Sequence record: MH051916
Reading direction: 5' to 3' (one strand)
Source of the DNA: Enterobacteria phage vB_EcoM_IME340
Length of the DNA: 64,000 nt
A model generated the notes under the pieces. That model ran no database searches and had not been told where the DNA came from. It saw nothing but the letters and a program-made list of their open reading frames with translations. A program made the position numbers and the translations under genes. Of this stretch, positions 7,174 to 63,975 are shown in pieces. The number at the start of each line of letters is the position of its first letter. The stretch's first letter is position 1.

Positions 7174-7200
7174 TTTTCTATCAGTTAAGAGGAGAATAAC

Positions 7201-7662
7201 ATGACTATCAACACAGAAGTTTTTATCCGTCGAAATAAGCTTCGTCGTCACTTTGAGTCGGAGTTTCGTCAAATTAACAATGAGATTCATGAGGCATCAA
7301 AAGCAGCAGGAGTCTCATCGTTTCATCTAAAATATTCTCAACATCTTCTTGATCGTGCAATTCAACGGGAGATTGATGAGACATATGTTTTTGAATTATT
7401 CCACAAAATAAAAGACCATGTTTTAGAAGTTAATGAATTCCTGAGTATGCCTCCGCGTCCTGACATTGATGAGGATTTTATTGATGGAGTTGAATATCGC
7501 CCTGGACGTTTAGAAATTACAGATGGAAATCTTTGGCTTGGATTTACGGTTTGTAAGCCTAATGAGAAGTTCAAAAACCCGTCACTTCAATGCAGGATGG
7601 CAATTATCAACAGTCGTCGTTTACCAGGAAAGGCTTCTAAAGCAGTAATTAAAACTCAATGA
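7201..7662 (+). CDS. regB: RegB sequence-specific endoribonuclease
   Basis: 153 aa; MTINTEVFIRRNKLRRHFESEFRQINNEI... matches T4 RegB as recalled. Confidence 0.93.
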   Translation: MTINTEVFIRRNKLRRHFESEFRQINNEIHEASKAAGVSSFHLKYSQHLLDRAIQREIDETYVFELFHKIKDHVLEVNEFLSMPPRPDIDEDFIDGVEYRPGRLEITDGNLWLGFTVCKPNEKFKNPSLQCRMAIINSRRLPGKASKAVIKTQ

Positions 7663-11486: not shown

Positions 11487-11510
11487 AGTCTCCTTCGGGA
11501 GACTTTTTTC
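11487..11510 (+). terminator. intrinsic terminator
   Basis: AGTCTCC-TTCG-GGAGACT hairpin followed by TTTTTTC. Confidence 0.7.
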
Positions 11511-11519
11511 ATTTTACCG

Positions 11520-11549
11520 GTTTACTTTCCGTTTGAGCTGTGGTACTAT
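11520..11549 (+). promoter_or_regulatory. early promoter (member of repeated promoter family)
   Basis: GTTTAC 11520-11525, TACTAT 11544-11549, followed by conserved ACAACTATC leader. Confidence 0.55.
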
Positions 11550-11577
11550 ACAACTATCGGATAAAGAGGAGAACATC

Positions 11578-11766
11578 ATGAAAATTGAAGCACTCAATCA
11601 AGAAGGAAATATCTACGTCATCATTAACGGTGATTTTTTCGTCGACATGGATGAAGTTACCAGTGAAGAACTTGAAGAACTTCTTAAGAAACGTTATGAT
11701 ATGTGTGATGAAGCTGCAACTCATATGGCGTGTGCAATATTCTCTCTTTCATATGTGGTGGAATAA
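11578..11766 (+). CDS. hypothetical small acidic protein (62 aa)
   Basis: ATG after GAGGAG SD. Confidence 0.5.
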
Positions 11767-15225: not shown

Positions 15226-15227
15226 TA

Positions 15228-15251
15228 GGGAGCCTTCGGGCTCCCTTTTTT
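15228..15251 (+). terminator. intrinsic terminator
   Basis: GGGAGCC-TTCG-GGCTCCC hairpin followed by TTTTTTATTT. Confidence 0.7.
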
Positions 15252-15276
15252 ATTTCAAAATTTTTTTCACAAAACG

Positions 15277-15306
15277 GTTTACAAGCATAAAGCTTTATGG
15301 TACTAT
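15277..15306 (+). promoter_or_regulatory. early promoter with conserved leader (repeat copy A)
   Basis: GTTTAC 15277-15282, TACTAT 15301-15306; leader to ATG near-identical to 41702-41765. Confidence 0.6.
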
Positions 15307-15340
15307 ACAACTATCAACTGATACGGATTTGGAGAATAAA

Positions 15341-16309
15341 ATGAAAACTGTAACTATCAATAAGGGTATCTACTTCGGTAAAGAAATCTCTGGAACTTTT
15401 GAGCTCTTAGGCGAATGGTTCCCAGATAATGCTCCGGTAGATGCACAAGGAGATGGTAAAGTTTTTGTTGAAATTGACGGTAAACGTCGCGGTGTTTGGG
15501 TTTACAAATCAGATATTTCATATGATGGTGTAAAAGTTGAAGAAGTTAAAGAATCGTATGAAGATATGAAAACCCGCATTAATAAAAGATTTAATGTTAT
15601 GGGAATGATGACGAATGGTATTATTAATGGAAATATTCGTTCATTAATTATCTCTGGCGCAGCAGGTATTGGTAAAACGTATTCTTTAGATAAAGCTTTA
15701 AATAAAGCAAATGATAATGGATACATTGAATATAAAAGCATTAATGGTAAAATCTCTGGTATTGGTCTTTATGAGCAGCTTTGGAATAATCGTGAAGAGA
15801 ATTCTGTCCTTTTGATTGATGATGTGGATGTTTTTTCTGATATGGACATTCTTAATCTTCTGAAAGCTGCTCTGGACACTGGAGAGACCCGTAAAGTCTG
15901 CTGGAGCACTGCATCTTCTTACTTAGAAGAAAAAGGCATTGACCGTGAGTTTGAATTTAAAGGAACGATTGTTTTTATCACAAACGTTGACATTGACCGC
16001 GAATTAGACCGTGGTACTAAACTTGCCCCACACTTACAAGCATTAGTGTCACGCTCAGTTTATTTGGATTTGGGTGTTCACACTAATGAAGAAATTATGG
16101 TCAGGGTTGAAGATGTTATTCTTTCAACTGACATGATGCAAAAGCGCGGTCTTTCTGATGAAGAAACTTATAAAGCATTATCATGGATGAAAGTTAATGT
16201 TAATCGTTTACGCAATGTTTCACTGCGTACTGCTCTTTATCTTGCTGACTTTATTATGACCGACAAAAACGGTTGGGAAGAAATTGCTGAGGTTACTCTT
16301 CTGAAATAA
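15341..16309 (+). CDS. AAA-type P-loop ATPase (322 aa)
   Basis: Walker A GAAGIGKT, Walker B LLIDDVD; start at ATG after GGAG SD. Confidence 0.65.
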   Translation: MKTVTINKGIYFGKEISGTFELLGEWFPDNAPVDAQGDGKVFVEIDGKRRGVWVYKSDISYDGVKVEEVKESYEDMKTRINKRFNVMGMMTNGIINGNIRSLIISGAAGIGKTYSLDKALNKANDNGYIEYKSINGKISGIGLYEQLWNNREENSVLLIDDVDVFSDMDILNLLKAALDTGETRKVCWSTASSYLEEKGIDREFEFKGTIVFITNVDIDRELDRGTKLAPHLQALVSRSVYLDLGVHTNEEIMVRVEDVILSTDMMQKRGLSDEETYKALSWMKVNVNRLRNVSLRTALYLADFIMTDKNGWEEIAEVTLLK

Positions 16310-16715: not shown

Positions 16716-16745
16716 GTTTACAAGACTGTTCCTCTGTGGTACTAT
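16716..16745 (+). promoter_or_regulatory. early promoter (repeat family)
   Basis: GTTTACAAGACTGTTC...GGTACTATACAACTATCAACT, as at 41702. Confidence 0.6.
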
Positions 16746-16773
16746 ACAACTATCAACTACGGAGGAACACAAA

Positions 16774-17301
16774 ATGAACGCTAAAGATATTTTCAACTTG
16801 GTAAATTACAACGATGGTAAATTTAAATCTGAAGCACAAAGTAAGTTCTTTAATGACATCTCAATCGGAGGTGAAATCACTGTTGATGGAGGACAAATTT
16901 ACAAATCCCGTTGGAATTGGATCGTTATTATCGATGAGATTGGTATTGTAGAAATTTACAAGAATACGAATAAAAATCGTACATTACACTGGTCTCGTGA
17001 TACTAACGAACAGTACAAAAAGGATAAAGCATCTAAATTATCTCGTGTAACTCAAGAAGATATTGAGTTCATCAAGAAAGATATTTTAATGTATGATAAT
17101 TTAATTGCTGAAGAGCAAGCTGTTATTGATAAATTTGACGAGATTAAAGCTTCTCGTGAAATTCCTGATTTTATGAAAGAATCAGTGAATGAACGATACA
17201 CTCTCATTTCAGAGCGTATTGAAACTTACAAAAAGCAAAGAGCTGAACGCCAAAATACTCTTCGGAAGTTTGAAGAACGGTTAAAGACGGTACTCGCATA
17301 A
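16774..17301 (+). CDS. hypothetical protein with C-terminal coiled coil (175 aa)
   Basis: ORF-track CDS after GGAGG SD. Confidence 0.55.
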   Translation: MNAKDIFNLVNYNDGKFKSEAQSKFFNDISIGGEITVDGGQIYKSRWNWIVIIDEIGIVEIYKNTNKNRTLHWSRDTNEQYKKDKASKLSRVTQEDIEFIKKDILMYDNLIAEEQAVIDKFDEIKASREIPDFMKESVNERYTLISERIETYKKQRAERQNTLRKFEERLKTVLA

Positions 17302-18670: not shown

Positions 18671-19699
18671 ATGAAAACTCGTTCTCAAATTGAAGATATG
18701 GTTCGTAACGCTAGCGATACTCGTGATGTTATGACATTTTTGTGTGAAAATAATTTAGATTTTGATAAAGTTAATCGTGCTATTCATCACTTTAAATATC
18801 TGAATAGCAGTGAATGGGTGCGTAATTTTAGTAAAGCAGGGTATATTACGCAAATGACTGCTCGTGAGCAGCTCACCGATTTCTGTAAAACTATTGATTA
18901 TAAAAATCCTCTATTTGTTCAAGGCGTTGGTCAAAGTAAGGTCAATTTATCATCTGGATTTTTCAATCCAAATCATTATCGTATTGAATGGAGATTTATT
19001 GCTCTGTTCCGTAGACAATTAAAGCAAATTTTATCAACTGCGAGTCGATTAAAAGGTTCTGATATTAACTTAAAGAATCTGAAATTTGATGGTTATACTC
19101 TTCAGATGGAAGTAAGACCATTAAAAGAAAATAATAGAACCGCACGAATTAGCTTTAAACCTAATACAAAAAATTCTCTTTCAATTTGTGAATGCCTTAA
19201 ATCACAGTTGACAGAAGCATTTAAGTATATGGATGTTGTTGCTGGTGTTCAGTCTAAGATTTCAAAGCATTTCGAACGATTTAAATTAGACACAACAACA
19301 TATGAACTTGATATGATCGTTTCATTTAAATACGATTTTTTGAGAAAGGATGAAGTCACGCAAGAGAAAAAGCAGGAAGTGCAAGATAACTTAAATTTAA
19401 ATTTATCCAATTACTCATCAAACGATCCTAAATTTTGGATGTATAGTTCAGGTAATAAGGATGCATGGAAATTCAATAAAGTGAATTTTCTTCCTGTTGA
19501 AAATCCGAGTCTTAAACCTGTTGAAAAATGGCATGCTGATGCGATTGAGAAGTCTATCAAGGCAGTAGATGATGAACTCGTTAAAGCAACTAATGAAGTG
19601 TTAGAAGCTGAAAAGATGTTAGAAAAAGCTCAAGAAAAAGTCAAAAATCTCACGAAGCAACGTTCTAAACTGAACAATGCACTAAATGCACTGAACTAG
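18671..19699 (+). CDS. coiled-coil-tailed protein, tandem family member 2 (342 aa)
   Basis: N-terminus MKTRSQIED; QILSTASRLKG motif; C-terminal coiled coil. Confidence 0.55.
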   Translation: MKTRSQIEDMVRNASDTRDVMTFLCENNLDFDKVNRAIHHFKYLNSSEWVRNFSKAGYITQMTAREQLTDFCKTIDYKNPLFVQGVGQSKVNLSSGFFNPNHYRIEWRFIALFRRQLKQILSTASRLKGSDINLKNLKFDGYTLQMEVRPLKENNRTARISFKPNTKNSLSICECLKSQLTEAFKYMDVVAGVQSKISKHFERFKLDTTTYELDMIVSFKYDFLRKDEVTQEKKQEVQDNLNLNLSNYSSNDPKFWMYSSGNKDAWKFNKVNFLPVENPSLKPVEKWHADAIEKSIKAVDDELVKATNEVLEAEKMLEKAQEKVKNLTKQRSKLNNALNALN

Positions 19700-19728
19700 T
19701 TTACTTTACCACAAGGATGTGGTATAAT
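19699..19728 (+). promoter_or_regulatory. early promoter (identical copy at 63946-63975)
   Basis: GTTTACTTTACCACAAGGATGTGGTATAAT. Confidence 0.6.
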
Positions 19729-27580: not shown

Positions 27581-27650
27581 ACATTCTGTATATTACCATT
27601 CTAACTATCATTCACTTCTTATCATTCCCTAAAATAATTTTCACAAAGTT

Positions 27651-27680
27651 GTTTACAAGAAGTTCAAACTGTGGTATTAT
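27651..27680 (+). promoter_or_regulatory. early promoter
   Basis: GTTTAC 27651-27656, TATTAT 27675-27680. Confidence 0.55.
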
Positions 27681-27710
27681 TAACATATGAATTGCCTTTG
27701 AGGATTTGAT

Positions 27711-30953: not shown

Positions 30954-32156
30954 ATGAAAGTATGCATTTTTATGGCTCGAGGTCTTGAAGGTTGCGGTGT
31001 AACTAAATTTTCTCTTGAGCAGCGTGATTGGTTTATTAAAAATGGTCATGAAGTAACTTTGGTTTATGCTAAAGATAAATCATTTACTCGTAATTGCGCG
31101 CATGATTATAAGTCATTTTCAATTCCAGTTTTATTGGCAAAAGAATACGATAAAACACTTAAGCTGGTAAATGATTGTGATATTCTAATTATCAATTCAG
31201 TTCCTGCTACTTCAGTAGAAGAAGACACCATTAATAACTATAAAAAAATTATTGATAACATTAAACCTTCGGTTCGTGTTGTAGTTTATCAGCATGACCA
31301 TTCTTCTCTTTCTTTACGCCGAAATTTGGGATTAGAAGAAACTGTTCGTCGAGCTGATGTTATTTTTAGCCATTCTGATAATGGTGATTTTAATAAAGTT
31401 TTAATGAAAGAATGGTATCCGGAAACTGTTTCTTTGTTTGATGATATTGAAGAAGCACCGACCGTATATAACTTTCAGCCTCCTATGGATATTGCGAAGG
31501 TTCGATCAACCTACTGGAAAGATGTTTCTGAAATTAACATGAATGTTAACCGTTGGATTGGTCGTACTACTACATGGAAAGGTTTTTATCAGATGTTTGA
31601 TTTTCACGAAAAACATCTTAAACCTGCAGGACTAAGTACTATTATGGAAGGTCTGGAACGTTCTCCAGCGTTCATTCCTATTAAAGAAAAAGGAATTCCA
31701 TACGAGTATTATCGTCTTCATCAAGTAGACCAAATTAAAATTGCTCCTAATTTGCCAACGCAAATTCTCGACCGCTATGTAAATAGCGAAATGCTTGAAC
31801 GCATGAGTAAATCCGGATTTGGTTATCAGCTAAGCAAGTTGGACAAAAAATATCTACAACGTTCTTTAGAATATACTCATCTCGAGCTTGGTGCATGTGG
31901 AACAATTCCGGTATTTTGGAAATCTACTGGCGAAAATTTAAAATTCCGTGTTGATAATACTCCTTTGACCTCACATGATAGCGGTATCATTTGGTTTGAT
32001 GAAAATGATATGGAATCAACATTTGAACGTATTAAAGAACTGTCATCTGACCGAGCTCTTTATGACCGTGAGCGAGAAAAAGCATATGAATTTTTGTATC
32101 AGCATCAAGATTCAAGCTTCTGCTTTAAAGAACAGTTTGACATTATTACAAAATAA
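30954..32156 (+). CDS. agt: DNA alpha-glucosyltransferase (HMC glucosylation)
   Basis: 400 aa; ...CIFMARGLEGCGVTKFSLEQRDWFIKNGHEVTLVYAKDKSFTR... matches T4 alpha-gt as recalled. Confidence 0.93.
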   Translation: MKVCIFMARGLEGCGVTKFSLEQRDWFIKNGHEVTLVYAKDKSFTRNCAHDYKSFSIPVLLAKEYDKTLKLVNDCDILIINSVPATSVEEDTINNYKKIIDNIKPSVRVVVYQHDHSSLSLRRNLGLEETVRRADVIFSHSDNGDFNKVLMKEWYPETVSLFDDIEEAPTVYNFQPPMDIAKVRSTYWKDVSEINMNVNRWIGRTTTWKGFYQMFDFHEKHLKPAGLSTIMEGLERSPAFIPIKEKGIPYEYYRLHQVDQIKIAPNLPTQILDRYVNSEMLERMSKSGFGYQLSKLDKKYLQRSLEYTHLELGACGTIPVFWKSTGENLKFRVDNTPLTSHDSGIIWFDENDMESTFERIKELSSDRALYDREREKAYEFLYQHQDSSFCFKEQFDIITK

Positions 32157-32171
32157 AGGGCTTCGGCCCTT
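32154..32171 (+). terminator. UUCG hairpin / weak terminator
   Basis: AAAGGGC-TTCG-GCCCTTT. Confidence 0.5.
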
Positions 32172-32332
32172 TAGCTTTATACGGAGTTTGATATAATGAT
32201 ATTTCTTGGATATGTGATACTTTTTCTTGCATTTTATCTATTCACTAGAGCATGTTGGATTGGGTTCTTTAGCACTCCAGATGGATTTATTTCAATAATT
32301 TTATTTTGCATTTCAATGACGGTTCTTGATAT

Positions 32333-36176: not shown

Positions 36177-36863
36177 ATGAAACTGTCTAAAGATACTACT
36201 GCTCTGCTTAAAAATTTCGCTACTATTAACTCTGGTATTATGCTTAAATCCGGTCAATTTATTATGACTCGCGCGGTTAATGGTACAACTTATGCAGAAG
36301 CAAATATTTCTGACACTATTGATTTTGATGTAGCAATTTATGATTTGAACGGTTTTCTCGGTATTCTGTCTCTAGTTAATGACGATGCAGAAATTTCCCA
36401 GTCAGAAGACGGTAATATTAAAATTGCTGATGCTCGTTCAACAATTTTTTGGCCAGCAGCCGATCCGAGTACAGTAGTTGCTCCTAATAAACCAATTCCA
36501 TTCCCAGTAGCATCTGTTGTTACTGAAATTAAAGCTGAAGACCTTCAACAGCTATTGCGTGTATCTCGTGGTCTGCAGATTGATACAATCGCTATCACAG
36601 TAAAAGAAGGTAAAATCGTAATTAACGGTTTTAATAAAGTAGAAGATTCTGCTTTGACCCGTGTTAAATATTCTTTGACTCTTGGTGATTATGATGGTGA
36701 AAACACATTTAATTTCATTATCAATATGGCAAATATGAAAATGCAACCAGGAAATTATAAACTTCTGCTCTGGGCAAAAGGTAAACAAGGTGCTGCTAAA
36801 TTTGAAGGTGAACACGCGAATTATGTAGTAGCTCTTGAAGCTGATTCTACCCACGATTTTTAA
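36177..36863 (+). CDS. 45: sliding clamp gp45
   Basis: 228 aa; MKLSKDTTALLKNFATINSGIMLKSGQFIMTRAVNG... matches T4 gp45 as recalled. Confidence 0.95.
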   Translation: MKLSKDTTALLKNFATINSGIMLKSGQFIMTRAVNGTTYAEANISDTIDFDVAIYDLNGFLGILSLVNDDAEISQSEDGNIKIADARSTIFWPAADPSTVVAPNKPIPFPVASVVTEIKAEDLQQLLRVSRGLQIDTIAITVKEGKIVINGFNKVEDSALTRVKYSLTLGDYDGENTFNFIINMANMKMQPGNYKLLLWAKGKQGAAKFEGEHANYVVALEADSTHDF

Positions 36864-36867
36864 TAGA

Positions 36868-36882
36868 GGGCTTCGGCCCTTT
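36868..36882 (+). terminator. UUCG hairpin / weak terminator
   Basis: GGGC-TTCG-GCCC then TTT. Confidence 0.5.
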
Positions 36883-36914
36883 ATAATTTACACTAAAACT
36901 TGAATGAGGAAATT

Positions 36915-38809: not shown

Positions 38810-38813
38810 GCAA

Positions 38814-38830
38814 GGGGCTTCGGCCCCTTA
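38814..38830 (+). terminator. UUCG hairpin
   Basis: GGGGC-TTCG-GCCCC. Confidence 0.5.
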
Positions 38831-38851
38831 TTTGGAGTATAATATATCAAG

Positions 38852-38887: not shown

Positions 38888-41584
38888 ATGAAAGAATTTT
38901 ATATCTCTATTGAAACAGTCGGAAATAACATTGTTGAACGTTATATTGATGAAAACGGAAAGGAACGTACTCGTGAAGTAGAATATCTTCCGACTATGTT
39001 TAGACACTGTAAGGAAGAATCAAAATACAAAGACATTTACGGTAAAAACTGCGCTCCTCAAAAATTTCCATCAATGAAAGATGCCCGAGATTGGATGAAA
39101 CGAATGGAAGACATCGGTCTCGAAGCTCTCGGTATGAACGATTTTAAACTCGCTTATATCAGTGATACATATGGTTCAGAAATTGTTTATGACCGAAAAT
39201 TTGTTCGTGTAGCTAATTGTGACATTGAGGTTACTGGCGATAAATTTCCTGACCCAATGAAAGCAGAATATGAAATTGATGCTATCACTCATTATGATTC
39301 AATTGACGACCGTTTTTACGTCTTTGATTTGTTGAATTCAATGTACGGTTCAGTATCAAAATGGGATGCAAAGTTAGCTGCTAAACTTGACTGTGAAGGT
39401 GGTGATGAAGTTCCTCAAGAAATTCTTGACCGAGTAATTTATATGCCATTTGATAATGAGCGTGATATGCTCATGGAATATATTAATCTCTGGGAACAGA
39501 AACGACCTGCTATTTTTACTGGTTGGAATATTGAGGGATTTGACGTTCCGTATATCATGAATCGTGTTAAAATGGTTCTCGGCGAACGTAGTATGAAACG
39601 CTTCTCTCCAATCGGTCGAGTAAAATCTAAACTAATTCAAAATATGTACGGTAGCAAAGAAATTTATTCTATTGATGGCGTATCTATTCTTGATTATTTA
39701 GATTTGTACAAGAAATTCGCATTTACTAATTTGCCATCATTCTCTTTGGAATCAGTTGCTCAGCACGAAACCAAAAAAGGTAAATTACCATATGATGGTC
39801 CTATTAATAAACTTCGCGAGACTAATCATCAACGATACATTAGTTATAACATTATTGACGTAGAATCAGTTCAAGCAATTGATAAAATTCGTGGGTTTAT
39901 CGATCTAGTTTTAAGTATGTCTTATTATGCTAAAATGCCTTTTTCTGGCGTAATGAGTCCTATTAAAACTTGGGATGCTATTATTTTTAACTCACTGAAA
40001 GGTGAACATAAGGTTATTCCTCAACAAGGTTCGCACGTTAAACAAAGTTTTCCAGGTGCATTTGTGTTTGAACCTAAACCGATTGCTCGTCGATACATTA
40101 TGAGTTTTGACTTGACGTCTCTGTATCCTAGCATTATTCGTCAGGTTAACATTAGTCCTGAGACTATTCGTGGGCAGTTTAAAGTTCATCCAATTCATGA
40201 ATACATCGCAGGAACAGCTCCTAAGCCAAGTGATGAATATTCTTGTTCTCCGAATGGATGGATGTATGATAAGCATCAAGAAGGTATCATTCCAAAGGAA
40301 ATCGCTAAAGTATTTTTCCAACGTAAAGATTGGAAAAAGAAAATGTTCGCCGAAGAAATGAATGCCGAAGCTATTAAAAAGATTATTATGAAAGGCGCAG
40401 GGTCTTGTTCAACTAAACCAGAAGTTGAACGATATGTTAAGTTCAATGATGATTTCTTAAACGAATTATCGAATTACACCGAATCTGTTCTTAATAGTCT
40501 GATTGAAGAATGTGAAAAAGCAGCTACACTTGCTAACACAAATCAGCTAAACCGTAAAATTCTTATCAACAGTCTTTATGGTGCTCTTGGTAACATTCAT
40601 TTCCGTTACTATGATTTGCGAAATGCTACTGCTATCACAATTTTTGGTCAAGTCGGTATTCAGTGGATTGCTCGTAAAATTAATGAATACCTGAATAAGG
40701 TGTGTGGAACTGATGGTGAAGATTTCATCGCAGCAGGTGATACTGATTCTGTATATGTTTGCGTAGATAAAGTTATTGAAAAAGTAGGTCTTGACCGCTT
40801 TAAAGAACAAAATGATTTAGTTGAATTCATGAATCAGTTCGGTAAGAAAAAGATGGAACCTATGATTGATGTTGCATATCGTGAGTTATGTGATTATATG
40901 AATAACCGCGAGCATCTGATGCATATGGACCGTGAAGCTATTTCTTGTCCACCGCTTGGTTCAAAGGGTGTTGGTGGATTTTGGAAAGCGAAAAAACGTT
41001 ATGCTCTGAACGTTTATGATATGGAAGATAAACGATTTGCTGAACCGCATCTAAAAATCATGGGTATGGAAACTCAACAAAGTTCAACACCAAAAGCAGT
41101 ACAAGAAGCTCTCGAAGAAAGTATTCGTCGTATTCTTCAGGAAGGTGAAGAGTCTGTCCAAGAATACTACAAGAACTTTGAGAAAGAATATCGTCAGCTT
41201 GACTATAAAGTTATTGCTGAAGTAAAAACCGCGAACGATATAGCTAAATATGATGATAAAGGTTGGCCAGGATTTAAATGCCCGTTCCACATTCGTGGTG
41301 TGCTAACTTATCGTCGAGCTGTTAATGGTTTAGGTGTAGCTCCAATTTTGGATGGAAATAAGGTAATGGTTCTTCCATTACGTGAGGGAAATCCATTTGG
41401 TGACAAGTGCATTGCTTGGCCATCGGGTACGGAACTTCCAAAAGAAATTCGTTCTGATGTACTGTCTTGGATTGACTACTCAACTTTGTTCCAAAAATCG
41501 TTTGTTAAACCGCTTGCGGGTATGTGTGAATCGGCAGGTATGGACTATGAGGAAAAAGCTTCGTTAGACTTCCTGTTTGGCTGA
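38888..41584 (+). CDS. 43: DNA polymerase gp43
   Basis: 898 aa; MKEFYISIETVGNNIVERYIDENGKERTREVEYLPTMFRHCKEESKYKDIYGKNCAPQKF... Confidence 0.97.
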   Translation: MKEFYISIETVGNNIVERYIDENGKERTREVEYLPTMFRHCKEESKYKDIYGKNCAPQKFPSMKDARDWMKRMEDIGLEALGMNDFKLAYISDTYGSEIVYDRKFVRVANCDIEVTGDKFPDPMKAEYEIDAITHYDSIDDRFYVFDLLNSMYGSVSKWDAKLAAKLDCEGGDEVPQEILDRVIYMPFDNERDMLMEYINLWEQKRPAIFTGWNIEGFDVPYIMNRVKMVLGERSMKRFSPIGRVKSKLIQNMYGSKEIYSIDGVSILDYLDLYKKFAFTNLPSFSLESVAQHETKKGKLPYDGPINKLRETNHQRYISYNIIDVESVQAIDKIRGFIDLVLSMSYYAKMPFSGVMSPIKTWDAIIFNSLKGEHKVIPQQGSHVKQSFPGAFVFEPKPIARRYIMSFDLTSLYPSIIRQVNISPETIRGQFKVHPIHEYIAGTAPKPSDEYSCSPNGWMYDKHQEGIIPKEIAKVFFQRKDWKKKMFAEEMNAEAIKKIIMKGAGSCSTKPEVERYVKFNDDFLNELSNYTESVLNSLIEECEKAATLANTNQLNRKILINSLYGALGNIHFRYYDLRNATAITIFGQVGIQWIARKINEYLNKVCGTDGEDFIAAGDTDSVYVCVDKVIEKVGLDRFKEQNDLVEFMNQFGKKKMEPMIDVAYRELCDYMNNREHLMHMDREAISCPPLGSKGVGGFWKAKKRYALNVYDMEDKRFAEPHLKIMGMETQQSSTPKAVQEALEESIRRILQEGEESVQEYYKNFEKEYRQLDYKVIAEVKTANDIAKYDDKGWPGFKCPFHIRGVLTYRRAVNGLGVAPILDGNKVMVLPLREGNPFGDKCIAWPSGTELPKEIRSDVLSWIDYSTLFQKSFVKPLAGMCESAGMDYEEKASLDFLFG

Positions 41585-41597
41585 TAGAATAAATCTA

Positions 41598-41619
41598 GGG
41601 ACCTCCGGGTCCCTTTTTC
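41598..41619 (+). terminator. intrinsic terminator
   Basis: GGGACC-TCCG-GGTCCC then TTTTT. Confidence 0.7.
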
Positions 41620-41701
41620 ATACAAGTAATATAAATCTATACTTAGGAAAAATAGGTGATTCTGGACTTCTGGAATTCATTAAAATTTTTTTCACAAAAC
41701 T

Positions 41702-41731
41702 GTTTACAAGACTGTTCTTCCGTGGTACTAT
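41702..41731 (+). promoter_or_regulatory. early promoter with conserved leader (repeat copy B)
   Basis: GTTTAC 41702-41707, TACTAT 41726-41731; downstream leader ACAACTATCAACTGATACGGATTTGGAGAAT identical to copy at 15307-15337. Confidence 0.6.
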
Positions 41732-41765
41732 ACAACTATCAACTGATACGGATTTGGAGAATGAA

Positions 41766-42146
41766 ATGAAAATCGCTATTTTGGTTATTACATTGGGTCT
41801 TACTGGTTGTGTAGCTCAAGGACCGGTAGTAAATCAATCTGATGTAGGAAAAATTGTAAACTGTTCAAGCAAATTTTATAATCCTAATGTTAAGTGTTAT
41901 AAAGAAGCTCCAAAACAGACAGTAGAACAAATGCAGGCGAATTTTGACGAAGCTATTCGTCCAGATGAATCTGCCCAAGCATATCGTAATTCAGATGTAA
42001 TTACACGCGAAGAAAAAATTGAAAGCTACTGCGCTGAACTTTGGGCAAATTGGGCTAATAATTACCAATGGCGTACTGGTAAAAATGCTCCGATGGAGTA
42101 TGTAGTGAATTCTTATAATTCATGTGTAAAAAATTTGACTAAGTGA
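41766..42146 (+). CDS. putative lipoprotein (126 aa)
   Basis: signal peptide with lipobox LTGC; start at ATG after GGAG. Confidence 0.6.
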   Translation: MKIAILVITLGLTGCVAQGPVVNQSDVGKIVNCSSKFYNPNVKCYKEAPKQTVEQMQANFDEAIRPDESAQAYRNSDVITREEKIESYCAELWANWANNYQWRTGKNAPMEYVVNSYNSCVKNLTK

Positions 42147-55085: not shown

Positions 55086-55141
55086 TGGAAGGACTTAGAT
55101 TCATTATACCATGAAAGTTTTAAAGCATTTTTCATAAAGTT

Positions 55142-55171
55142 GTTTACAAGCTGAAGTAAAAATGTTATAGT
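55142..55171 (+). promoter_or_regulatory. early promoter
   Basis: GTTTAC 55142-55147, TATAGT 55166-55171. Confidence 0.6.
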
Positions 55172-55200
55172 ATAAGTAGTTAACCGTCCGTGAGAAAAAT

Positions 55201-60435: not shown

Positions 60436-60606
60436 AGTTTAAATTTTTTCATAAAACTATATACATCAGTAGTTGATTATGGTATTATATCAATATCAAC
60501 TACTGATACAGAAAACAACTTGGAGAATAAAATGGAAAATTTGCCAAAGGTGCTGCTACTCTTCTGAAACGCATCGCTCCACTGTTCAATTAATGAGGAA
60601 ATTGTA

Positions 60607-60822
60607 ATGAAACGTAAAACTGTTCAGAAATGCACTAATGACGAATTTGAAGATGTATTATTCGATCCAGATTTGGTAGTGGTTCAAAAGGAACACACCA
60701 TTAAGTTTACTCACTTGACTTCGGTTTATGTGTATGAAAAGGTTGGTGATAAACAGCCAATTTACGGTGTATTCCGTGAAATCACTGAAGACGGTACAAC
60801 TTACTGGAAGGAAATTTATTAA
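60607..60822 (+). CDS. hypothetical protein (71 aa)
   Basis: GAGGAAATTGTA SD. Confidence 0.5.
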
Positions 60823-61794: not shown

Positions 61795-62059
61795 AATTAT
61801 GAAATATGTTAATCGTTCTATCGCGGCATTAGTATTAGCAGTATCTTTAGTAGGATGTACTGATGCTGATAATGCAACCAAAGTTTTGTCTTCAAGTGGT
61901 TTTACTAATATTGAAATCACTGGATATAATTGGTTCGGTTGCTCTGAAAATGATTTCCAACACACTGGATTTCGTGCTATTGGACCTACCGGGCAGAAAG
62001 TAGAAGGAACAGTATGTTCTGGTCTATTCTTCAAGGATTCGACTATCCGTTTTAAATAA
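61787..62059 (+). CDS. putative lipoprotein (90 aa)
   Basis: signal peptide with lipobox LVGC. Confidence 0.55.
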   Translation: MSEIMKYVNRSIAALVLAVSLVGCTDADNATKVLSSSGFTNIEITGYNWFGCSENDFQHTGFRAIGPTGQKVEGTVCSGLFFKDSTIRFK

Positions 62060-62060
62060 A

Positions 62061-62077
62061 AGGCCTTCGGGCCTTTA
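62061..62077 (+). terminator. UUCG hairpin / weak terminator
   Basis: AGGCC-TTCG-GGCCT then TTT. Confidence 0.55.
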
Positions 62078-62090
62078 GCTTTATGATTAC

Positions 62091-62128: not shown

Positions 62129-63946
62129 ATGATTAAGAATGAAATTAAAATTCTGAGCGATATTGAACATATCAAAAAGCGTAGCGGCATGTATATTGGC
62201 TCTTCTGCTAATGAAATGCATGAGCGCTTTCTGTTTGGTAAATGGGAAAGTGTTCAGTATGTACCTGGTCTTGTTAAGCTTATTGATGAAATTATTGATA
62301 ACTCAGTAGATGAAGGTATTCGTACTAAGTTTAAATTCGCAAATAAAATTAATGTTACTATCAAAAACAATCAAGTAACAGTTGAAGATAACGGTCGTGG
62401 TATTCCACAGGCGATGGTTAAAACACCTACCGGTGAAGAAATTCCTGGTCCTGTTGCTGCATGGACTATTCCAAAAGCAGGTGGTAACTTTGGTGATGAT
62501 AAAGAACGCGTCACTGGCGGTATGAACGGTGTTGGTTCTAGTTTAACTAACATTTTTTCTGTGATGTTTGTCGGTGAAACTGGCGACGGTCAAAATAATA
62601 TTGTAGTTCGCTGCTCGAATGGCATGGAAAATAAATCGTGGGAAGATATTCCTGGAAAATGGAAAGGAACACGTGTTACTTTCATACCTGATTTTATGTC
62701 ATTTGAAACTAATGAGCTATCTCAAGTTTATCTTGACATTACACTAGATCGTCTCCAGACACTTGCAGTAGTTTATCCTGATATTCAATTTACCTTTAAT
62801 GGTAAAAAGGTTCAGGGTAATTTTAAGAAATATGCACGCCAATATGATGAACATGCTATCGTTCAAGAACAAGAAAATTGTTCTATTGCGGTTGGTCGTT
62901 CACCGGATGGTTTTCGTCAATTAACATACGTCAATAACATTCATACTAAGAATGGTGGCCATCACATTGACTGCGTTATGGATGATATTTGTGAAGACCT
63001 TATTCCACAAATCAAACGTAAGTTCAAAATTGATGTAACTAAAGCACGTGTTAAAGAATGTTTGACTATCGTTATGTTTGTTCGTGATATGAAAAACATG
63101 CGATTTGATTCTCAAACTAAAGAGCGTTTGACTTCTCCATTTGGTGAAATTCGTAGTCATATTCAGCTTGATGCTAAAAAGATTTCACGTGCTATTTTAA
63201 ATAATGAAGCAATTTTAATGCCAATCATTGAAGCTGCCTTGGCTCGTAAATTGGCGGCAGAAAAAGCAGCAGAAACTAAAGCAGCTAAAAAGGCTTCTAA
63301 AGCTAAGGTTCATAAACATATTAAAGCGAATCTTTGTGGTAAAGATGCTGATACTACTCTTTTCTTGACTGAGGGTGATTCTGCTATTGGATATCTTATT
63401 GATGTTCGTGATAAAGAACTTCATGGTGGTTATCCATTGCGTGGTAAAGTTCTTAACAGTTGGGGCATGTCATATGCTGATATGCTTAAAAACAAAGAAC
63501 TATTTGATATTTGTGCAATCACTGGATTGGTTCTTGGTGAAAAAGCTGAAAACTTGAATTATCATAATATTGCTATTATGACTGATGCTGACCATGATGG
63601 TCTAGGAAGCATTTATCCTTCTTTGCTCGGATTTTTTAGTAATTGGCCAGAACTGTTTGAACAAGGAAGAATTCGCTTTGTCAAAACTCCTGTAATCATC
63701 GCTCAGGTCGGTAAAAAACAAGAATGGTTTTATACAGTCGCTGAATATGAGAGTGCTAAAGATGCTCTACCTAAACATAGCATCCGTTATATTAAGGGAC
63801 TTGGCTCTTTGGAAAAATCTGAATATCGCGAGATGATTCAAAACCCAGTATATGATGTTGTTAAACTTCCTGAGAACTGGAAAGAGCTTTTTGAAATGCT
63901 CATGGGAGATAATGCTGACCTTCGTAAAGAATGGATGAGCCAATAG
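62129..63946 (+). CDS. 39: DNA topoisomerase II large (ATPase, GyrB-like) subunit, unsplit
   Basis: 605 aa; MIKNEIKILSDIEHIKKRSGMYIGS; GHKL ATPase motifs; a single ORF covers the region that T4 splits into genes 39 and 60. Confidence 0.9.
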   Translation: MIKNEIKILSDIEHIKKRSGMYIGSSANEMHERFLFGKWESVQYVPGLVKLIDEIIDNSVDEGIRTKFKFANKINVTIKNNQVTVEDNGRGIPQAMVKTPTGEEIPGPVAAWTIPKAGGNFGDDKERVTGGMNGVGSSLTNIFSVMFVGETGDGQNNIVVRCSNGMENKSWEDIPGKWKGTRVTFIPDFMSFETNELSQVYLDITLDRLQTLAVVYPDIQFTFNGKKVQGNFKKYARQYDEHAIVQEQENCSIAVGRSPDGFRQLTYVNNIHTKNGGHHIDCVMDDICEDLIPQIKRKFKIDVTKARVKECLTIVMFVRDMKNMRFDSQTKERLTSPFGEIRSHIQLDAKKISRAILNNEAILMPIIEAALARKLAAEKAAETKAAKKASKAKVHKHIKANLCGKDADTTLFLTEGDSAIGYLIDVRDKELHGGYPLRGKVLNSWGMSYADMLKNKELFDICAITGLVLGEKAENLNYHNIAIMTDADHDGLGSIYPSLLGFFSNWPELFEQGRIRFVKTPVIIAQVGKKQEWFYTVAEYESAKDALPKHSIRYIKGLGSLEKSEYREMIQNPVYDVVKLPENWKELFEMLMGDNADLRKEWMSQ

Positions 63947-63975
63947 TTTACTTTACCACAAGGATGTGGTATAAT
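63946..63975 (+). promoter_or_regulatory. early promoter (identical to copy at 19699-19728)
   Basis: GTTTACTTTACCACAAGGATGTGGTATAAT. Confidence 0.6.

Follow-up and report, generated by a model that had tools for sequence, protein, structure and literature searches.

Early transcription in phage T4 relies on a promoter class in which UP, −35, TGn and −10 elements are accompanied by an extra consensus (PMC2988021; PMC1524935). Cassettes of the PeSL type, already described as hotspots of gene shuffling, consist of a stem-loop, an A/T tract, the pattern TTTACW N17 TAYWAT, an SD and a start codon (Arbiol et al. 2010, PMC2839356; Comeau et al. 2014, PMC4122927). The PeSL papers describe the T4/PST pair and map crossovers in RB49 and phi1 to the interval between the −10 box and the ATG (PMC2839356; PMC4122927). 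Mini-circles that arise by recombination between flanking cassettes have been shown in RB49 and phi1 only and in no T4-group phage, and the 2010 paper regards the T-even elements as analogs rather than homologs of the PeSLs in RB49; its discussion attributes cassette exchange to general homologous recombination, or to microhomology recombination, between conserved regulatory blocks (PMC2839356). The optimal target of the T4 endonuclease RegB with ribosomal protein S1 is GGAGAAUAAAA, with the consensus GGAGRAYARAA (Durand et al. 2006, PMC1702504), and T4 nrdC.8 is reported to be moderately cut by RegB (PMC1702504).

The window analysed here, the whole stretch of 64,000 nucleotides, is from a Tequatrovirus with ~97–98% identity to many (hundreds of) T4-like coliphage genomes. 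The T4 early-transcription strand corresponds to its + strand, on which all features listed below are located.

Copies of the cassette

A preliminary description of this DNA had reported a repeat at 15261–15345 and 41686–41770, with partial copies at 16716–16775, 11520–11580 and 60455–60535, and had proposed that it is a promoter-leader cassette preceding unrelated genes. The main pair and all partial copies are found at these positions. In an ungapped comparison of 15256–15347 (copy 1) with 41681–41772 (copy 2), 79/92 positions are identical: 21/28 in the upstream A/T block, 6/6 in the −35 element GTTTAC, only 5/14 in the −35/−10 spacer, 9/10 in TGn/−10, and 37/38 in the stretch that follows the −10 box through ATGA. 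The window contains two exact occurrences of the 40-mer TGGTACTATACAACTATCAACTGATACGGATTTGGAGAAT, compared to 0.00 expected in 100 shuffles, even with 3 mismatches. When the early-promoter sites of the window are compared in 171 pairs, the runner-up in identity after the −10 box reaches 25/38 and the median is 14/38. The main pair is thus much more alike than chance or the family background would give.

Copy 1 follows an intrinsic terminator hairpin, AGGGAGCC-TTCG-GGCTCCCT (15227–15246) and a T run, which ends the nrdC.11 transcription unit and represents the “stem-loop” part that cassettes of the PeSL type have; its stem ends 30 nt before the −35 element. The UP-element-like, A/T-rich block CAAAATTTTTTTCACAAAACG (15256–15276), in the region from about −40 to −60, abuts the −35 element. 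A block of this type, CAAAATTTTTTTCACAAAAC, is common to the copies at 15256, 41681, 27630, 55121 and 60441, and is missing at 16716, where the upstream half is nrdC.9 coding sequence. We take this A/T block to resemble the E. coli UP consensus. The core promoter (15277–15306; 55.6 bits with the position weight matrix, PWM) comprises GTTTAC at 15277–15282, a 14-nt variable spacer, and TGG plus TACTAT at 15298–15306; the orthologous site in phage SA20RB is annotated as T4-early-promoter-like. Transcription would start near A15313, which lies 7 nt beyond the −10 box, giving a predicted 5′ untranslated leader, ATCAACTGATACGGATTTGGAGAATAAA (15313–15340), which is predicted to be unstructured and belongs to the segment shared with 41732–41769. 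The SD and a candidate RegB/S1 target coincide in the 11-mer GGAGAATAAAA (15331–15341). The gene behind copy 1 (15341–16309) encodes a 322-residue homolog of NrdC.10, a P-loop NTPase-like early protein encoded at the equivalent position in T4. The support for its earlier assignment as an AAA ATPase consists of a Walker A motif and of Pfam AAA/STAND matches that fall below the curated cut-offs.

Copy 2 lies downstream of gene 43 (DNA polymerase), and the terminator hairpin after that gene (41597–41614) is 87 nt upstream of the −35 element. The promoter (41681–41731; 57.8 bits) contains an UP-like block (41681–41701), GTTTAC (41702–41707), an nrdC.8-type spacer, and TGG plus TACTAT (41723–41731). 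The leader (41738–41768) carries GGAGAATGAAA at 41756–41766 and ends with the imm.1 start codon (41766–41768). The imm.1 homolog (41766–42146; 126 residues) belongs to DUF5481 and has the lipobox LTGC, which bears out its earlier description as a lipoprotein; the gene order in T4 is 43, imm.1, imm, 42.

The partial copy in front of the nrdC.8 homolog (16716–16776) shares the −35 element, spacer, −10 element, start region and CAACTATCAACT, and has a different leader with GGAGGAACACA. Another partial copy (11487–11580) consists of a hairpin (11487–11504), an early promoter in which the −35 element at 11520 and TGGTACTATACAACTATC are shared, a leader with GGAGAACATCA, and an ATG at 11578 that opens a 62-residue ORF. 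Between motB and cef, a further copy (60441–60534; 30.3 bits) has the UP-like block, TGG plus TATTAT, and a long leader variant, ATCAACTACTGATACAGAAAACAACTTGGAGAATAAAATG, which ends in GGAGAATAAAATG at 60522–60534. Right behind it is an 11-codon remnant ORF (60532–60567), the product of a 208-nt internal deletion of an 89-residue ORF that is intact in some relatives, and this remnant is followed by cef (60607–60822). Two family members were absent from the preliminary description: one at 27630–27694 (47.8 bits), with the UP-like block, −35 element and extended −10 element in common, and one at 55121–55172 (35.9 bits), sharing the UP-like block and the −35/spacer type. A terminator hairpin is close to the promoter only at the copies at 15277, 11520 and 51705. 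Since the hairpin is distant at 41702, and none is present at the 16716 and 60459 copies, not every copy is a full PeSL.

Promoter class and candidate RegB sites

With a T4-specific PWM, 20 early-promoter sites score ≥30 bits on the + strand of the window, and none on the − strand even at ≥15 bits. An exact pattern scan for GTTTAC-N16-19-TAnnnT gives 22 matches on the + strand versus 2 on the − strand. The sites lie ~30–50 nt 5′ of an SD and start codon, each co-oriented with its downstream gene. The repeats combine a GTTTAC −35 element, an equivalent spacing of 17–18 nt and a TAnnnT −10 hexamer; the −35 element is exact at 15277, 41702, 16716 and 11520, and is the weaker ATATAC at the 60459 copy. 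In the family consensus and information profile, the extended −10 element reads TGGTACTAT or TGGTATTAT and is followed by a ..CTATC start region. Judged by these features, the repeats are members of the T4-type early-promoter family, and transcription probably initiates at the cassette copies. A scan with the generic sigma-70 consensus found 27 sites versus 25.6 expected and thus does not separate them from background, so that the T4-specific matrix is needed. A reading as a middle promoter was rejected: the sole GCTT that could serve as a MotA box in the copy 1 spacer is 5 nt from the −10 element, compared to 11–13 nt in the published pattern. The promoter-leader cassette proposed earlier is present, in the form of an early promoter, leader, SD and start codon co-oriented with unrelated genes, and T4 has it at the same loci.

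The preliminary description had also identified the GGAG of the SD as the RegB cleavage motif. The shared leader ends in GGAGAATAAAATG, which contains the optimal RegB/S1 site, and the 11-mer of copy 1 equals the published optimum exactly (PMC1702504). The window itself encodes RegB (7201–7662; Pfam REGB_T4, E = 1e-68), and the SD region of that gene (7191–7201) is GGAGAATAACA. Exact matches to GGAGRAYARAA occur only twice in the 64 kb, both within cassette copies (15331 and 60522). When ≤1 mismatch to GGAGAATAAAATG is allowed, six sites are found, all on the + strand, versus 0.37 expected; these include the SD of regB itself and a motB.2 site. GGAG is present at 15331, 41756, 60522 and 16761, in agreement with the RegB rule, by which GGA does not vary and position 4 is G or, rarely, U. 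The fit to the 11-nt consensus is 11/11 at 15331 and 60522, 10/11 at 41756, where G replaces the A of the consensus at position 8 in the imm.1 copy, and 8/11 at 16761, which represents the alternative GGAGG form. In RNA folding predictions for four leaders, GGAG is mostly unpaired and the minimum free energies are not below those of shuffled sequences (z −0.2 to +1.35). From the agreement with the consensus, the nrdC.10, imm.1 and 5′-cef leaders are likely RegB substrates.

Mosaicism and the origin of the copies

Copy 2 is a mosaic: its spacer matches that of the 16716 copy (12/14), and its leader matches that of copy 1 (37/38). Spacer and leader types are likewise recombined in chimeric combinations across phages, and at least six different first genes follow the same leader in T4-like genomes. 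Several relatives differ by insertions or duplications at the cassettes. In ECO07P1, a module of promoter, modA-like gene and terminator is inserted just 5′ of copy 1. EH2 retains the UP block and the −35 element, continues with a foreign spacer, −10 element, leader, 66-residue ORF and second promoter, and rejoins at GGAGAATAAAATG. In CT01, the −10 element, leader and 5′ end of imm.1 are partially duplicated in tandem around a gene fragment. Other phages have an ORF of 78–85 residues between the cassette and imm.1, with its junction exactly at ATGAAAAT. There are ~6 cassette copies per genome in 542 phage records; a scan with the cassette pattern gave 9 stretches in IMG/VR and 24 in metagenomes, 4 of the latter being chance matches in unrelated DNA.

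The repeats had been suggested as substrates for deletions and duplications. The insertions, the partial duplication, the presence or absence of ORFs and the mosaics at the cassettes speak for a role in recombination, but the deletion expected between the neighboring copies at 15298 and 16737, with loss of nrdC.10 and nrdC.9, was found in 0/545 related genomes (query: a synthetic junction with the nrdC.11 end and the cassette fused to nrdC.8). Recombination between the two best copies, at 15.3 kb and 41.7 kb, was discarded as a source of viable deletions because the DNA polymerase gene (38888–41584) is among those that would be lost. The 208-nt deletion after 60532 and the junction at ATGAAAAT reflect microhomology at the cassette edge, rather than long cassette-to-cassette homology, and the ACT indel in the leader could have arisen by slippage instead of gene conversion.

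We read these observations, namely how the sequences are built, on which strand they lie, that T4 conserves them, that they are mosaic, that indel alleles occur at the cassettes and that the window has regB, as pointing to T4-like early promoters with short RegB-target leaders, of the PeSL type and related to each other by descent and exchange, and assign this reading a probability of about 0.88. Host sigma-70 RNA polymerase would use the UP-like block, the −35 GTTTAC and the TGn −10 element right after infection, and each promoter would feed an unstructured leader of ~28–50 nt, followed by the SD and start codon. RegB and ribosomal protein S1 would then act in trans on the SD region GGAGAATAAAATG, cutting GG^AG, and this cut would inactivate the early mRNAs a few minutes after infection begins. 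Common descent and the swapping of segments would explain why the copies at nrdC.10 and imm.1, and also the one at cef apart from an insertion, are alike beyond the promoter consensus. The A/T tract, the −35 element, the −10/start region and SD-ATGAAAA may serve as homology patches for the phage recombination system, so that spacers and leaders would be reassorted and small genes inserted, lost or duplicated at the cassettes. Taking sequence, comparison and literature together, the interpretation in the preliminary description appears to be essentially right.

The same likeness could arise by convergence alone, if each copy had been independently selected as a strong promoter with a RegB-sensitive ribosome-binding site and neither descent nor exchange were involved. 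Much of the similarity does reside in functional blocks (UP-like block, −35, TGn/−10, CTATC and GGAGAATAAAATG), and the best copies differ in the spacer, a segment without a sequence-specific role. However, the 15 nt between the start region and the SD, AACTGATACGGATTT, have no known function and are identical in both copies, and they are found again, with indels, at 4 other loci in relatives. The 12/14 match between the 41702 and 16716 spacers is equally at odds with independent selection, which does not predict mosaic combinations of spacer and leader types in different phages, and we consider convergence improbable. The conservation might instead be due to an extra cis-regulatory element in the leader, such as an operator for a DNA-binding protein of phage or host at the small inverted repeat TATCA-AC-TGATA close to +1, or an RNA element that is structured or is the target of an sRNA, and not to promoter or RegB function. 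The predicted start site of copies 1 and 2 does coincide with an imperfect palindrome, TATCAACTGATA, and the shut-off of T4 early promoters has been described as incompletely understood (PMC3014915; PMC2988021). Yet the palindrome varies in spacing, with a 3-nt ACT insertion in T4 imm.1 and in the cef copy, and is missing in the nrdC.8 and 11520 copies; as RNA, the leaders fold no more stably than shuffled sequences. An element of this kind therefore seems very improbable. A riboswitch- or attenuator-like leader was rejected on the same folding comparison of four leaders, and no Rfam family matched when the whole window was scanned at gathering thresholds. The near-exact identity over 50 nt at two distant loci could also suggest that, in this genome alone, a segment was recently duplicated or the assembly is faulty. 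T4, however, has the pair at both loci, as do hundreds of phages and metagenomic contigs that were sequenced independently, and ~90 bp alone are shared, with unrelated flanks; these comparative data already refute such an origin, to which we give practically no weight.

The leader subfamily ATCAACT(ACT)GATAC(G/A)GA...TTGGAGAATAAAATG may be a distinct portable module of early promoter and RegB-sensitive start, spread by short-patch gene conversion at the conserved −35, −10 and SD elements, so that a small gene placed behind it would be switched on instantly and turned off by RegB within minutes. We propose this tentatively and regard it as somewhat unlikely. If true, the RegB “consensus” GGAGAAUAAAA would in part reflect the ancestry of paralogous leaders, and not independent selection at each site.

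Comparison with known systems

Seen as T4-like early promoters with RegB-target leaders, the sites would place ~20 transcription units in 64 kb under one immediate-early, self-limiting control, with strong host-polymerase promoters followed by RegB cleavage, and the cassettes would account for accessory genes coming and going at these spots. All of this is already known, either as textbook T4 biology or as the published PeSL model. The value of the analysis lies in the correct annotation of the window and in a few specific examples of alleles from the nrdC.11/nrdC.10, 43/imm.1 and motB/cef junctions.

Lambdoid morons and integron cassettes are likewise small accessory genes, which either bring a promoter and a terminator with them or enter the genome at a recurring sequence; in contrast to them, no integrase or attC-type site is involved in the T4-like cassettes. 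Like PeSLs, the cassettes are multi-copy, adjoin indels between close relatives and form chimeras, and the main copies are conserved as one block that begins with the A/T tract, takes in the −35 and −10 elements and includes the SD and the start codon of the downstream ORF. They differ from PeSLs in that the 16716 and 60459 copies have no adjacent stem-loop and that of the 41702 copy lies 87 nt away.

The T4 RegB/S1 sites (PMC1702504) have GGAG in the SD followed by an A-rich 7-mer, and the optimum GGAGAAUAAAA is matched exactly by copy 1 and by the cef copy; a predicted single-stranded context and regB are present here too, whereas the imm.1 copy deviates at position 8. The window departs from T4 by minor allelic differences alone: for instance, its imm.1 leader is without the ACT that the T4 leader carries, and the −10 element of the cef copy is TATTAT instead of TACTAT. 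The strand bias and the position 5′ of early ORFs are alike in T4 and in the window, and T4 has corresponding cassettes in front of nrdC.10, imm.1, nrdC.8 and cef, with the same architecture and nearly the same sequence.

Promoter-leader repeats and their genomic setting

The segments at 15256–15347 and 41681–41772 are identical at 79 of 92 positions in an ungapped alignment, so that the near-exact repeat reported in the preliminary description at 15261–15345 and 41686–41770 is real. The two copies agree at 21/28 positions of the upstream A/T block, 6/6 of the −35 element, 5/14 of the spacer, 9/10 of the TGn/−10 element and 37/38 of the nucleotides following the −10. The window contains exactly two instances of a 40-mer that runs from the −10 to the Shine-Dalgarno sequence, where shuffled sequence would be expected to give zero even at three mismatches. 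When all 171 promoter-site pairs of the window are compared over the stretch after the −10, the runner-up reaches 25/38 identity and the median pair 14/38. Copy 1 (+ strand) is flanked by the nrdC.11 and nrdC.10 homologs, and copy 2 (+ strand) by gene 43 (DNA polymerase; 38888–41584) and imm.1. The three partial copies are also as described, located at 16716 (5′ of nrdC.8), 11520 (5′ of a 62-residue ORF) and 60455 (between motB and cef). That description omitted two further members, at 27630 and 55121, which have the upstream block in common.

Hundreds of Tequatrovirus (T4-like) genomes, from phages of Escherichia, Shigella, Yersinia and Salmonella, match two 2–3 kb stretches around the claimed copies with 97–98% identity. 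T4 carries the same cassette sequences at the corresponding places, and comparison with its reference shows that the T4 minus strand is the + strand of the window; early transcription runs in this direction. The interval from nrdC.10 to imm.1 is ∼1.9 kb shorter in the window than in T4. An Rfam scan of the whole window yields no family at or above its gathering score, which suggests that the nrdD group I intron of T4 is absent.

The exact pattern GTTTAC-N16–19-TAnnnT occurs 22 times on the + strand versus twice on the − strand. A position matrix built from 19 of these sites identifies 20 + strand sites at ≥30 bits, including the 60459 copy, which was not in the training set, and no − strand site in the window at ≥15 bits. 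A Shine-Dalgarno sequence and start codon follow ∼30–50 nt 3′ of each site. The family consensus consists of an A/T tract, GTTTAC, TGTGGTAtaAT and then taTC. The upstream block, CAAAATTTTTTTCACAAAAC, is presumably similar to the E. coli UP-element consensus. T4 early promoters form an "UP/−35/TGn/−10" class with extra consensus regions (PMC2988021; PMC1524935); all sequence features of this class are present, and, as judged from sequence, the repeats belong to it. Orthologous sites are labelled T4-early-promoter-like in the GenBank record of one relative. A generic sigma-70 scan did not separate the cassette sites from background. The proposed promoter-leader cassette shared by unrelated genes thus corresponds to T4-type early promoters 5′ of nrdC.10, imm.1, nrdC.8 and others.

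Other short repeats are present in the window. The early promoters at 19697–19728 and 63944–63975 are a second pair of paralogous promoters, with an exact 32-nt stretch in common (TAGTTTACTTTACCACAAGGATGTGGTATAAT) before they diverge; this stretch takes in the normally variable spacer, and one of the two promoters overlaps the gene 39 stop codon. A near-identical family of terminator hairpins with UUCG tetraloops, (A)GGGCTTCGGCCC(T), at 651–676, 32153–32178, 36863–36888, 38810–38835 and 62054–62084, forms a second group of short repeats scattered over the window. Five small ORFs (start codons at 2965, 3725, 4049, 4390 and 48699), four of them clustered around denV, are nearly alike in their first ∼30 nt, encoding MKTY(K/Q/S)EF(I/L), which we take to be like the N-terminal capsid-targeting sequence common to T-even internal proteins.

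The leader and its putative RegB site

The leader common to the copies is predicted to be unstructured, and its 3′ end reads GGAGAATAAAATG. In an in vivo survey by Durand et al. (2006) that covered 68 of T4's 71 intergenic GGAG motifs, the efficient target of the endoribonuclease RegB with ribosomal protein S1 was described as a single-stranded 11-mer, GGAGAAUAAAA, with the consensus GGAGRAYARAA; nrdC.8 of T4 was cleaved moderately (PMC1702504). Exact matches to this consensus occur only twice in the window, at 15331 and 60522, both within cassette copies, and the imm.1 copy matches at 10/11 positions. GGAGAATAAAATG is found six times at ≤1 mismatch, always on the + strand, versus 0.37 expected; these occurrences include the Shine-Dalgarno sequence of regB itself and the motB.2 GGAU site named in PMC1702504. 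The motB site GGAGTATAAAA, the model substrate of that study, is likewise present.

The regB gene (7201–7662, + strand; Pfam REGB_T4, E = 1e-68) and its putative targets are both in the window. The Shine-Dalgarno region of regB, GGAGAATAACA, matches the consensus at 10/11 positions, which fits the report that T4 RegB cleaves its own mRNA. The consensus matches, together with the presence of regB, strongly argue that RegB would cleave at the nrdC.10, imm.1 and cef-upstream sites, in line with the earlier identification of the GGAG Shine-Dalgarno as a RegB motif. A mildly new angle is that the leader subfamily may act as a portable promoter-plus-RegB-site module, and its paralogy may have inflated the published RegB consensus.

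Rearrangements at the cassette junctions

A 95-nt cassette query matches 542 phage records at ∼6 places each. The cassettes themselves are mosaic. The imm.1 cassette shares 12/14 spacer positions with the nrdC.8 cassette and 37/38 leader positions with the nrdC.10 cassette; its upstream block recurs in four other copies. Across isolates and metagenomes, at least six different genes stand first behind members of the leader subfamily, and spacer and leader types occur in chimeric combinations. A metagenome contig, OBRH01000009.1 (L026, 2296–6222), has three cassettes within 4 kb flanking small genes without counterpart in the window, and this region looks hyperplastic.

Close relatives show three alleles at the nrdC.11/nrdC.10 junction, namely the window/T4 form and those of ECO07P1 and EH2. 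In ECO07P1, a whole module (early promoter, modA-like gene and terminator) is inserted directly 5′ of the nrdC.10 cassette. The gene of this Escherichia phage (L005, 1250–1860; 161 residues) is annotated as a modA-like ADP-ribosyltransferase and has no Pfam match at E ≤ 0.01; the larger allele is seen in several further records (H2, H9, H10). EH2 retains the upstream block and −35, continues with a different spacer, −10 and leader, adds a 66-residue ORF and another promoter, and rejoins the window sequence at GGAGAATAAAATG of nrdC.10.

At the 43/imm.1 junction, some phages carry a lipoprotein-like ORF of 78–85 residues between the cassette and imm.1, with the junction relative to the window/T4 form exactly at ATGAAAAT (alignment A1). 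In CT01-type phages, the −10, leader and imm.1 5′ end are partially duplicated in tandem around a fragment of this ORF. In Shigella phage CT01 (L006, 1400–1740), the duplication comprises the imm.1 promoter −10, the leader and the first 30 codons, and the enclosed fragment is part of the 85-residue ORF carried 5′ of imm.1 elsewhere. HY01, PEC04 and vb_GEC_SH_GT have the same type of duplication, which the deposited annotation reads through as two overlapping "hypothetical proteins".

At the motB/cef junction, some metagenomic and IMG/VR genomes have an intact 89-residue ORF behind the cassette (product MENLIIIEQ...KFAKGAATLLKRIAPLFN). A 208-nt internal deletion in the window and T4, beginning in both right after ATGG, leaves an 11-codon remnant (60532–60567, + strand; alignment A2; compare L013, L021, L023 and L025) directly 3′ of the cef-upstream cassette, where the T4 annotation has no gene.

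Insertion, a split cassette, duplication, ORF presence or absence and mosaic forms in relatives are in keeping with the suggested role of cassettes as recombination substrates. The simple deletion predicted between the neighbouring copies at 15298 and 16737 was not borne out: a synthetic junction query found the repeat-mediated junction in 0 of 545 relatives. Recombination joining the two best copies would take out ∼26 kb and yield no viable deletion, because the DNA polymerase gene lies in the interval. Two of the observed indels involve no more than short microhomology at the edge of the cassette. Slippage may account for an ACT indel in the leader; in ECO07P1 and L017, a further compared sequence, it occurs together with a G-to-A change, and since the two together match the long leader variant, short-patch conversion is suggested.

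Comparison with PeSL elements

The interpretation in the preliminary description is essentially correct, and the cassettes are established, already known T4 biology: early promoters, RegB-sensitive Shine-Dalgarno sequences and modular shuffling mediated by promoter-early stem-loop (PeSL) elements. Repoila et al. reportedly made an earlier observation, in 1994, at T-even internal-protein loci. PeSLs were first shown in RB49 and phi1, where mini-circle crossovers fall between the −10 and ATG (PMC2839356), and a later study extended the description to the T4/PST pair, giving TTTACW-N17-TAYWAT as the promoter consensus (PMC4122927). The window cassettes have the same composite of stem-loop, A/T tract, −35, −10, Shine-Dalgarno sequence and start codon. 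However, the stem-loop is not found at every copy: it is close to the promoter at copy 1 (15227–15246) and the 11520 copy (11487–11504), 87 nt away at copy 2 (41597–41614), and absent at the 16716 and 60459 copies. Some copies therefore qualify as full PeSLs and others as partial ones. Like PeSLs, the window cassettes are multi-copy and adjoin indels between close relatives, with chimeric products.
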